Positions 35,737 to 37,513 of a stretch of DNA of 64,000 nt are shown here, one piece after another; positions within the stretch are counted from its first letter, which is position 1; each line of letters opens with the position of its first letter. The notes under the pieces are model-generated. The model saw nothing but the letters and a program-made list of their open reading frames with translations, did no database searches and was not told where the DNA came from. The stretch is from contig CADAHQ010000005.1 of NCBI GenBank assembly GCA_902787715.1, forward strand, positions 2,576 through 66,575. The letters are read 5' to 3'. The stretch comes from an uncultured Lachnospiraceae bacterium (GTDB lineage Bacteria > Bacillota > Clostridia > Lachnospirales > Lachnospiraceae). The translations under genes were made by a program, and so were the position numbers.

Positions 35737-37119
35737 ATGCGGGATTTGGAGCTCAGCAACAAAACGTTCAAACTGGAACAGGATCCGTACATCTATCAAT
35801 TGCAGGACACGCCGGAACCGGAGTTGTTCCGGGAGATGTTCCCTTACACCGAAACGCCCAAGATTGCGTTTAACTATCGCCGCGTTCCGGAAAATATGCC
35901 CGAGGACATCTTCATCACCGACACGTCCTTCCGCGACGGACAGCAGTCCCGCACACCCTACACCACAGAGCAGATGGTGCACATTTATAAGCTTTTGCAC
36001 AAGCTCGGCGGCCCGAAGGGCATGATCCGCCAGACGGAGTTCTTCGTGTACTCCGAAAAGGACCGTAAGGCATTAGAGGAATGTATGGCTTTGGGGTTTG
36101 AATTTCCCGAGATTACGACGTGGATTCGCGCCAACAAAAAAGATTTCGAGCTCGTCCGCTCCGTCGGAATCAAGGAGACCGGAATTCTCGTGAGCTGCTC
36201 GGATTACCATATTTTCCACAAGATGGGCTTAAACCGCCGTGAGGCTTTGGACCGGTACCTCGGAATCGTGAAAGACTGCATTGACGCCGGCCTTCGGCCG
36301 CGCTGCCATTTCGAAGACATCACCCGGGCCGATTTCTACGGTTTCGTGGTTCCGTTCGCTAACTGCCTGATGGATCTCTCCCGCGAGAGCGGCGTTCCGA
36401 TTAAGATCCGGGCCTGCGACACCATGGGCTACGGCGTTCCGTACCCCGGCGCAACCATGCCCCGCAGCGTCTCGGGCATCATTTACGGTCTGATGCACTA
36501 CTCCGAGGTCCCTTCGGAGATGCTTGAGTGGCACGGCCACAACGACTTTTACAAGGGCGTGGTCAACGCCACCACCGCCTGGATGTACGGCGCAAGCGCC
36601 GTCAACTGCTCACTCTTGGGAATCGGCGAACGCACCGGCAACGTCCCTTTGGAGGCCATGGTCTTTGAATACGCCTCCCTGCGCGGCCACTTAAACGGCA
36701 TGGACACCCGCGCCATCACGGAAATTGCGGAATACATCCAAAATGAGACCGGCTACGAAATCCCGCCCATGACGCCCTTCGTCGGCGCTAACTTCAACCT
36801 GACTCGCGCCGGAATCCACGCCGACGGCATGATGAAGAACCCCGAGATTTACAACATCTTCGACACCGAAGCCATCCTAAACCGCCCGCCGAAGGTGTCC
36901 GTCTCCAACACCTCGGGCCTCGCCGGCGTCGCCTACTGGGTCAACGACTACCGCAAAAAATTTGGCCTTCCCGAGCTTCCGAAGAACAACCCGCTGATCC
37001 AAACCATCTACAACTGGGTCTGCAGCGAGTACGACGCCGGCCGCATCACCATCATCAGTGACGGCGAGCTGGAAGCCAAATACCACGAGCTCACCGCAGA
37101 CGGCGCCGAGGACAAGTAG
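35737..37119 (+). CDS. HMGL-like family enzyme (2-isopropylmalate / homocitrate / Re-citrate synthase type)
   Basis: ORF 35560..37119. ATG 35737 lies 8 nt after GGAGG. ITDTSFRDGQQS and HGHNDFYKGVVNATTA metal-binding blocks. 460 aa with no LeuA regulatory domain. Confidence 0.82.
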   Translation: MRDLELSNKTFKLEQDPYIYQLQDTPEPELFREMFPYTETPKIAFNYRRVPENMPEDIFITDTSFRDGQQSRTPYTTEQMVHIYKLLHKLGGPKGMIRQTEFFVYSEKDRKALEECMALGFEFPEITTWIRANKKDFELVRSVGIKETGILVSCSDYHIFHKMGLNRREALDRYLGIVKDCIDAGLRPRCHFEDITRADFYGFVVPFANCLMDLSRESGVPIKIRACDTMGYGVPYPGATMPRSVSGIIYGLMHYSEVPSEMLEWHGHNDFYKGVVNATTAWMYGASAVNCSLLGIGERTGNVPLEAMVFEYASLRGHLNGMDTRAITEIAEYIQNETGYEIPPMTPFVGANFNLTRAGIHADGMMKNPEIYNIFDTEAILNRPPKVSVSNTSGLAGVAYWVNDYRKKFGLPELPKNNPLIQTIYNWVCSEYDAGRITIISDGELEAKYHELTADGAEDK

Positions 37120-37154
37120 TCCGCGAGTCTCCGCCCTGTTCAGCCAATCCTGAT

Positions 37155-37470
37155 GAGGCGCAGGGAAGAACCGCAGGATGACCCAGTGTCGGGCGGCTCC
37201 AGCCGACTAAGAGCCTTCTTCAACTGCATACCGGAGGCGTTTTTGCGGGGCTTGCACGCCGCCTTTGAACAAACATCAAGGAAGGCGGCGTGCTACGAGA
37301 GGCGCTTGCGCCTCTACACCGCGAGGCCGGTTGCGGGCTCGCGGATAACCTCAAAACGCCTCCATGCAGTCTCGAACGCTCTAAGTCGACTTCTGTGAGT
37401 GCAAAGCCTTGCACTCACAGAATACCGCAATGCCCTCCGCTGTGTCTCCTGCGGTTCTTCCCTGCGCCTC
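37155..37470. other. 316-nt branched inverted-repeat element (structured RNA or MITE-like element)
   Basis: Perfect 24-bp closing stem GAGGCGCAGGGAAGAACCGCAGGA (37155-37178) / its reverse complement (37447-37470). Nested helices: 37201-14/37378-91 (12 of 14), 37223-29/37364-70, 37233-43/37353-63 (11 of 11). Local hairpins: 37254-63/37284-93 (10 bp), 37298-37315, 37319-37344, 37393-37422 (13 bp). Confidence 0.6.
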
Positions 37471-37480
37471 GATATGATAC

Positions 37481-37513
37481 AAAAAAAGGGCGGAGTCCTC
37501 GCGGACTCCGCCC
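37481..37513 (-). terminator. intrinsic terminator of hsp20
   Basis: GGGCGGAGTCC-TCGC-GGACTCCGCCC (11 bp). On the minus strand it is followed by TTTTTTT, 78 nt after the hsp20 stop. Confidence 0.8.

Follow-up and report, generated by a model that had tools for sequence, protein, structure and literature searches.

What kind of sequence occupies positions 37155-37470 of the stretch of 64,000 nucleotides analysed here (hereafter, the window), which comes from the genome of a rumen Lachnospiraceae (G000; 2.48 Mb in 54 contigs)? The first-pass annotation, which was made from the letters only, described a 316-nt branched inverted-repeat element and left several readings side by side: a structured 3′ UTR or non-coding RNA, a target of RNase III cleavage, or an insertion of the MITE type. 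As discussed in the following sections, the element is probably one of the dispersed copies of a non-coding palindromic repeat whose maintenance takes place in the DNA itself, rather than a dedicated RNA gene.

The element and its surroundings

The element follows a plus-strand gene of the HMGL family (Pfam HMGL-like), which is without a terminator of its own, and faces an hsp20 gene that is convergent to it. As originally described, it is closed by a perfect 24-bp stem, whose arms (37155-37178 and 37447-37470; 24 nt each, 268 nt apart) are 100% complementary, and it ends 10 nt ahead of the tract of the hsp20 terminator, the A/T tract being 37481-37487. It also starts just past the stop codon of the HMGL-family gene (37117-37119), although at a distance of 35 nt and not of 36. 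The branched multi-helix fold is confirmed, with a stability in the z = -14 class: the RNA fold of 37150-37475 reaches -203.8 kcal/mol on the plus strand (z -14.3) and -207.2 kcal/mol on the minus strand (z -18.3), and 0 of 100 shuffles equalled the value in each case. The inner helices are present much as claimed and comprise a perfect 11-bp stem (37233-37243/37353-37363), a perfect hairpin (37254-37265/37282-37293) to which 10 bp had been assigned but which has 12, an 8-bp hairpin (37298-37305/37308-37315), and an 11-nt hairpin that is 91% matched (37319-37329/37334-37344). The perfect hairpin on the 3′ side is likewise present, but it has 14 bp from 37391 (37391-37404/37409-37422), instead of 13 bp from 37393.

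A feature absent from the earlier description is that the palindrome extends beyond the 24-bp arms, out to 37118 and 37507. As the whole gap (37118-37513) pairs end to end when folded as DNA (-142 kcal/mol, z -15.3), the palindrome is longer than was described. Its leftmost segment, 37118-37140, begins within the stop codon of the HMGL-family gene and pairs with 37484-37507. The features of the locus are listed below, together with those of a second copy of the family in the window. R1 is a covariance model of the 147-position core, and P2-P5 are the stems of that core.

37118-37154, no strand: outermost left part of the palindrome, in which 37118-37140 repeats part of the hsp20 terminator hairpin in inverted form
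37155-37178, no strand: 5′ arm of the perfect 24-bp stem, locus-specific, with no second copy in the genome
37179-37200, plus strand: inner arm and conserved 5′ junction CGGCTCC; similarity to the paralogues starts 5-15 nt before the core
37201-37391, plus strand: conserved branched core (stems P2-P5 and apex region), common to all copies (R1, 132 bits, E 1.5e-30)
37254-37293, plus strand: 12-bp perfect hairpin that replaces the short-variant apex loop CGCTnCGCTC in the alignment of long and short variants
37297-37345, plus strand: optional two-hairpin module of ~46 nt, found in 3 of 7 aligned genome copies
37391-37422, plus strand: hypervariable 14-bp hairpin, whose position is conserved in the alignments and whose sequence is different in most copies
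37420-37433, plus strand: conserved 3′ junction motif GAATACCGCAATGC, from the copy alignment
37447-37470, no strand: 3′ arm of the perfect 24-bp stem, pairing with 37155-37178
37481-37513, minus strand: hsp20 intrinsic terminator (T tract and hairpin 37488-37513), from which 37118-37140 was copied in inverted form
47154-47621 (core 47336-47495), minus strand: second family copy in the window (R1, 105 bits, E 1.5e-23)

Copies in the genome and in its relatives

The suggestion of a MITE-like insertion holds in that the element is multi-copy and patchy within the genus, but fails in that the 24-bp arms are unique and are not shared terminal inverted repeats. In a BLAST search of G000 with the 316 nt, the central 200 nt were found at six further places, and the 24-nt arms had no second occurrence. 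The near-identical copies that this search had been expected to reveal for a MITE did not appear, as the centres are alike at 75-88% only, and no near-identical pair at clearly different loci was seen. Using R1, we found 14 loci in G000 at 60-158 bits and one more at 40 bits, i.e., approximately 15 copies. Matches were also obtained in 12 of 30 other genomes of the same genus (1-14 in each; the remaining 18 had none) and in none of 30 genomes from other genera, and many relatives carry a shorter, 112-nt form of the core. A pattern scan of a genome-contig collection gave three matches, none of which fitted R1.

One of these copies is in the window itself. Its core (47336-47495, equivalent to G000:C5:49911-50070) lies in the palindrome 47154-47621, whose arms match at 84 of 103 positions. 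Rather than having arisen purely locally, this palindrome is a member of the same repeat family.

Several arrangements were observed among the copies. In G017:C102:7314-9422 (locus L047), there are three tandem copies in the same orientation (cores at 1259, 1501 and 1816), which are 242-315 nt apart and 88-95% alike and resemble a BIME array. Convergent pairs, in which a plus copy is followed by a minus copy 0.3-1.2 kb away, are frequent (for instance, G000 C2:347866-348397, G000 C16:11351-11998, G004:C93:6745-8122 and G011:C22:7019-7667), and the pair in G004 flanks a 263-aa gene. Two G016 contigs (C73 and C100; loci L040 and L049) end inside the same copy, with an overlap that is 100% identical over 141 nt, and the flanks of both halves map to a single G000 locus; consequently, the palindrome evidently breaks short-read assemblies. 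Finally, the gap at G000 C19:3881-3988, where two relatives have a full copy, retains only the 3′ junction motif GTCAATCCCGGCC and is a probable deletion remnant.

Architecture of the core

The seven G000 copies that were aligned share one architecture throughout, which consists of an unrelated outer stem, the 5′ junction GGCTCC, stems P2-P5, the apex region, a variable hairpin and the 3′ motif GAATACCGC. RNAalifold predicted 55 pairs from this alignment, with changes on both sides in 29 of them. The halves of P2-P5 form an imperfect inverted repeat of ~45 bp, which is conserved among the copies, with co-variation by subfamily. There are also conserved features that are asymmetric, namely an A.A mismatch in P2, the junction sequences and the apex, and their conservation indicates that something selects on sequence.

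Two parts of the core differ between copies in a modular way. The 46-nt two-hairpin module occurs in the window copy and in those at G000 C2:385152 and C2:348236, and one of these carriers has orthologues in G026 and G004 that lack it. As the module is shared within G000 and missing in orthologues, copies within a genome would seem to exchange sequence, which suggests gene conversion between copies or a mobile sub-module. The apex, for its part, has ~33 nt in the short variant (gCTGCGGAACTCGCTnCGCTCArACAGtCCtCg), with the layout TGC GGAACT CGCTnCGCTCAAAC AGTCC TCG. In the short variants of the genus, its 22-nt core is CGGAACTCGCTnCGYTCRRACA, flanked by TG and GTCCTC. The window copy presents a modified form of the apex, TGCGGGGCT...ACCTC, into which the 12-bp hairpin and the 46-nt module are inserted.

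Origin of the arms

If the core is shared, where do the arms come from? We collected 43 copies with their flanks, of which 37 had enough flank for an arm test. All 37 have cognate inverted-repeat arms, 23-119 nt long and mostly 75-95% matched, and the median alignment score was 64 for cognate arms vs 17 +/- 3.4 for non-cognate ones. Paralogues cease to resemble each other 5-15 nt outside the core on the 5′ side and from a few to ~110 nt beyond it on the 3′ side and, therefore, the larger part of each arm was not inherited together with the core. Two G004 copies 1.2 kb apart share the 3′ arm to +92, which indicates that the inner arms travel with the copy on duplication.

Comparisons of filled and empty sites identify the source of the outer arms in some cases. 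For instance, G004:C93 carries a copy where G000 has a gap of 36 nt (C2:73501-73537), and the first part of the insert is the right-flank terminator in inverted form, with ~20 nt from beyond it, this terminator being already present at the empty G000 site. In G010:C42, the left arm is an inverted copy (46/55) of the promoter region of the downstream gene, and this promoter is conserved, with 110 matched positions over ~146 nt, at the G000 C9 site that has no copy. In the window, 37118-37140 agrees with 37484-37507 at 21 of 24 positions once its reverse complement is taken, the loop being GCGA in one and TCGC in the other. The equivalent hsp20 terminator is found at the same position in all five relatives where this region was compared, but the neighbouring gene is not conserved in any of the five, and no orthologous empty site for the window copy was found among them. 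In four of these relatives (G004, G010, G015 and G025), the terminator has no adjoining element; only G026 has a copy beside hsp20, which is of the short type, inverted, and with arms that are recognisably related to those of the window. In these three cases, therefore, outer arms are inverted duplicates of host sequence that already existed in the other flank. The target-site duplications that a MITE would predict were not found, as no direct duplication appeared in the filled-vs-empty comparisons; the flank duplication is inverted instead, and the outer palindrome of the window is the inverted copy of the hsp20 terminator.

RNA or DNA?

Some orthologous loci carry the centre in opposite orientations. 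Between the same two genes, the G000 copy (C2:385152) and its G004 counterpart have cores that point in opposite directions, and the hsp20-adjacent copy of G026 is inverted relative to that of the window. More generally, no fixed orientation relative to flanking genes was found with the crude gene calls used, no recurrent ORF was found within 1.5 kb of the copies, and visual inspection of the flanks that were read revealed no conspicuous promoter motif.

The mismatches provide a further criterion. We reason that an RNA under selection would be expected to tolerate G-U on its own strand and to avoid A.C. The arms of the genus copies have 310 mismatches, of which 61 are G.T, 68 are A.C and 181 are of other types. 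In the core stems there are 1506 Watson-Crick pairs, 18 G.T, 32 A.C (17 of which come from one doubtful column) and 139 other mismatches. Thus, G.T and A.C are similar in both arms and core, and both are rarer than the other mismatches. Many core columns switch among two, three or four Watson-Crick types and, despite this heavy covariation, there is no excess of G-U on either strand, in arms or core. The mismatch spectrum looks like that of unfiltered mutation, with paired positions changing as complementary doublets. The combination of strong covariation without G-U excess, a flipped centre and no recurrent nearby ORF argues for maintenance at the DNA level. Two further observations concern this spectrum: one apex-stem position is G.U on the plus strand in all seven aligned G000 copies, which are all long-variant, and the arms of the metagenome loci (see below) have 54 A.C vs 24 G.T. 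A weak RNA-level or strand-specific signal is possible.

Database searches gave no known relative. The first-pass annotation had not recognised the element as any named RNA family and, in agreement with this, an Rfam scan of the region gave no match on it. There was no match in plasmid and phage collections, and searching the literature with the sequence of either strand, written as DNA or as RNA, brought up no paper. Taken with the absence of a G-U excess and an orientation that is not conserved between orthologues, the Rfam result speaks against the structured 3′ UTR or non-coding RNA that had been proposed.

The apex motif in metagenomes

A scan of public metagenome contigs for CGGAACTCGCTNCGYTCRRACA matched at least 120 contigs, compared with a chance expectation of ~4 if the collection is assumed to have ~10^12 bases. 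Among the matches listed, the contigs that bear the apex come from human-gut, marine, freshwater and soil projects and range from 33 to 72% GC, conservation is confined to ~33 nt, and the neighbours are unrelated housekeeping genes. Only 4 of the 80 metagenome loci examined among these matches fit R1, which implies that the apex motif is shared but the surrounding stems are not. The apex is mostly at the tip of a site-specific palindrome with a median arm of 26 nt, and 74% of the usable cases exceed the 95th percentile of non-cognate arm pairs (both values for the matches listed). An Rfam scan of 20 apex-bearing loci gave nothing. The exact apex pattern had no match in 401 sampled genomes of the phylum and, consequently, the short apex form is sparse there.

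Read on the minus strand, the motif includes GC-GNA-GC, whose central base is the variable one, and sequences of the type d(GCGNAGC) are very stable DNA mini-hairpins. We considered such a mini-hairpin at the apex and rejected it, as the apex by itself has no significant structure in nearest-neighbour DNA folding. To our knowledge, there is no enzyme, mechanism or name for this apex motif.

A probable DNA-level explanation and its alternatives

The pairing of the element is Watson-Crick, with no wobble preference, its centre is multi-copy and patchy in the genus, and its arms are site-specific. It seems likely to us that it is built in three layers: a strand-asymmetric centre, genus-specific stems and junctions (P2-P5, GGCTCC and GAATACCGC), and long locus-specific arms. 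Template switching between inverted repeats is reported to homogenise arms and invert the spacer (PMC8604942), and it has been reported for quasipalindromes of E. coli (PMC7202029). From the sequences compared here, we infer that template switching may also act at these loci. In such a model, the hairpin-prone centre would promote intramolecular template switching or snap-back synthesis during replication, copying one flank onto the other side. Repeated copying would keep the arms complementary, make the palindrome grow outward and, occasionally, invert the centre; the inverted duplication of flanks would be explained by the snap-back copying that this adds to template switching. New copies would be made when the centre, along with its inner arms, is duplicated or transposed with the help of a putative trans-acting factor that reads the apex. 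As no transposase or other partner for the repeat was found, mobility is deduced only from the distribution of the copies and from the filled and empty sites. As a side effect, transcripts that run on past the HMGL-family gene would carry the 24-bp perfect duplex, which might plausibly block the 3′ end or be cut by RNase III.

A structured non-coding RNA or 3′-UTR element selected as RNA, i.e., a multi-copy sRNA family, a stabiliser of mRNA 3′ ends or an RNase III site, would account for the very stable fold on both strands, the covariation in 29 of 55 core pairs, the conservation of junction sequences between variable helices and the apex-stem G.U that is invariant in the seven long-variant copies. 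Additionally, the element is probably transcribed, a prediction that derives from the lack of a terminator in the upstream HMGL-family gene. Selection as RNA is nevertheless unlikely: G-U does not exceed A.C on either strand, in arms or core, the orientation to flanking genes flips between orthologues, the outer arms are copied from host flanks, 18 of 30 other genus genomes lack the element, no Rfam family matches it, and no promoter motif was seen by eye in the flanks that were read. An ordinary MITE, which would be an internally deleted IS with the ~45-bp P2-P5 repeat as its terminal inverted repeats, a DDE transposase acting in trans and palindromes as its targets, strikes us as quite improbable. 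The P2-P5 repeat is conserved and co-varies by subfamily, as expected from the ends recognised by one transposase, copy number is patchy, and some IS elements do target palindromes. Against this, filled sites have no target-site duplication when compared with empty ones, the conserved sequence extends outside the putative terminal repeats (junctions and 3′ motif), the internal hairpin is hypervariable in sequence, the wider family conserves the apex and not the ends (among the metagenome matches listed), and neither a parent element nor a recurrent ORF is found near any copy.

It may also be asked whether the palindromes need a common origin, as purely local remodelling of terminator regions by replication errors, with no mobility, would produce arms that include inverted copies of local terminators or promoters, and template switching is a documented process (PMC7202029, PMC8604942). 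We consider this very improbable, since the same 147-position core is present at 14 G000 loci with 60-158 bits, at one more with 40 bits, and at dozens of loci in relatives. Independent local errors are, by this sharing of the core, excluded as its sole source. Returning to a dispersed repeat maintained as DNA, a broader proposal can be made, although we hold it tentatively and regard it as somewhat doubtful: apex-conserved fold-back elements might constitute a distinct class of prokaryotic selfish DNA. In these elements, a strand-specific tip of ~33 nt would be heritable, and the body would be formed anew at each site as host flanks are copied by snap-back synthesis, capturing inverted terminators, promoters or gene ends. 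A putative enzyme acting on single-stranded DNA would have accompanied the spread of the class across phyla, and the Lachnospiraceae subfamily would be an elaborated lineage of it.

Implications

If the DNA-level explanation is true, covariation and an extreme folding z-score can come from the maintenance of a palindrome in DNA and not from RNA, and the comparison of G-U with A-C separates palindromes maintained in this way from structured RNA. The element at 37155-37470 and the palindrome at 47154-47621 would be members of one repeat family, and this genus family would be tied to an apex motif of very different microbial communities. As the elements create inverted second copies of terminators and promoters, they could rewire transcription at gene ends. 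They would also break metagenome assemblies at such loci.

Comparison with known systems

Several families of intergenic repeats invite comparison. The pneumococcal BOX, the Correia elements of Neisseria and the enterobacterial ERIC/IRU have conserved ends and occur in one genus or family each, and Correia elements have a TA target duplication. In broad terms, the present element is like BOX, Correia and ERIC in its size (100-300 bp), its intergenic site and its strong predicted hairpins; BOX is, in addition, built of optional sub-modules, which correspond here to the 12-bp hairpin and the 46-nt insert. The difference is that the ends are here site-specific and that the apex occurs in contigs of 33-72% GC. 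Membership in the MITEs was also considered and discarded, as the 24-bp arms are unique to the locus, only the internal P2-P5 is shared, and there is no direct target duplication.

Closer parallels are found in REP/REPIN sequences (PMC3116915, PMC3337134), which RAYT (Y1 HUH) transposases mobilise and which are likewise non-coding, extragenic, multi-copy DNA repeats that form hairpins, persist in a lineage, vary in copy number among relatives and are often located between convergent genes. However, REPs conserve the stem, including the tag at its base (GTAG or CGTC), and vary in the loop, whereas in the present element the tip and the junctions are conserved and the stem is site-specific; no conserved stem foot was found, as the arms share no sequence between copies. 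A Y1 (RAYT) gene (PF01797) is found in 8 of 31 genus genomes and does not track copy number, with 7-10 copies and no PF01797 match in G004, G017 and G011, and matches and no copies in G013 and G022, bearing in mind that these are draft genomes, in which a gene may be missed. A REP/REPIN system with a RAYT was accordingly rejected, on the absence of a conserved stem foot and on a Y1 distribution, judged on draft genomes, that is uncorrelated with the copies. In G000 itself, a fragment of a Y1 transposase (IS200/RAYT-type, 109 bits) lies at a contig end (G000:C12:46519-46806).

Another group of oriented hairpin repeats, SRM/NTS, are cleaved by the SsnA nucleases, which are GIY-YIG enzymes specific for single strands; these repeats are found in many phyla and function in single-stranded form (PMC11893778). 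The element resembles these Ssn-related motifs in being an oriented hairpin repeat with conserved sequence next to a palindrome, but the motif differs, as the NTS consensus CGTCATTCCCGCGMAVGCGGGAATCYRG is absent here. Regarding the enzyme, no Ssn-sized GIY-YIG gene was found among the 31 genus genomes: in 30 of them there is only one GIY-YIG frame, of UvrC size (~490-714 aa), and one genome has a second match of 332 aa. For an inverton, in which a recombinase drives the switch, one would look for a neighbouring invertase gene and for a promoter within the invertible segment; on the first point, the copies have no recurrent ORF close by.

Finally, quasipalindrome template switching (the Ripley model; PMC7202029, PMC8604942) accounts for the complementary arms, the double changes without wobble, the inversion of the spacer and the inverted duplication of flanks. 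It is, however, a mutational process and not an element, and it leaves unexplained a centre that is conserved across dozens of loci and distant taxa. Of the systems compared, the element behaves most like a selfish repeat of the REPIN type combined with the dynamics of quasipalindromes.
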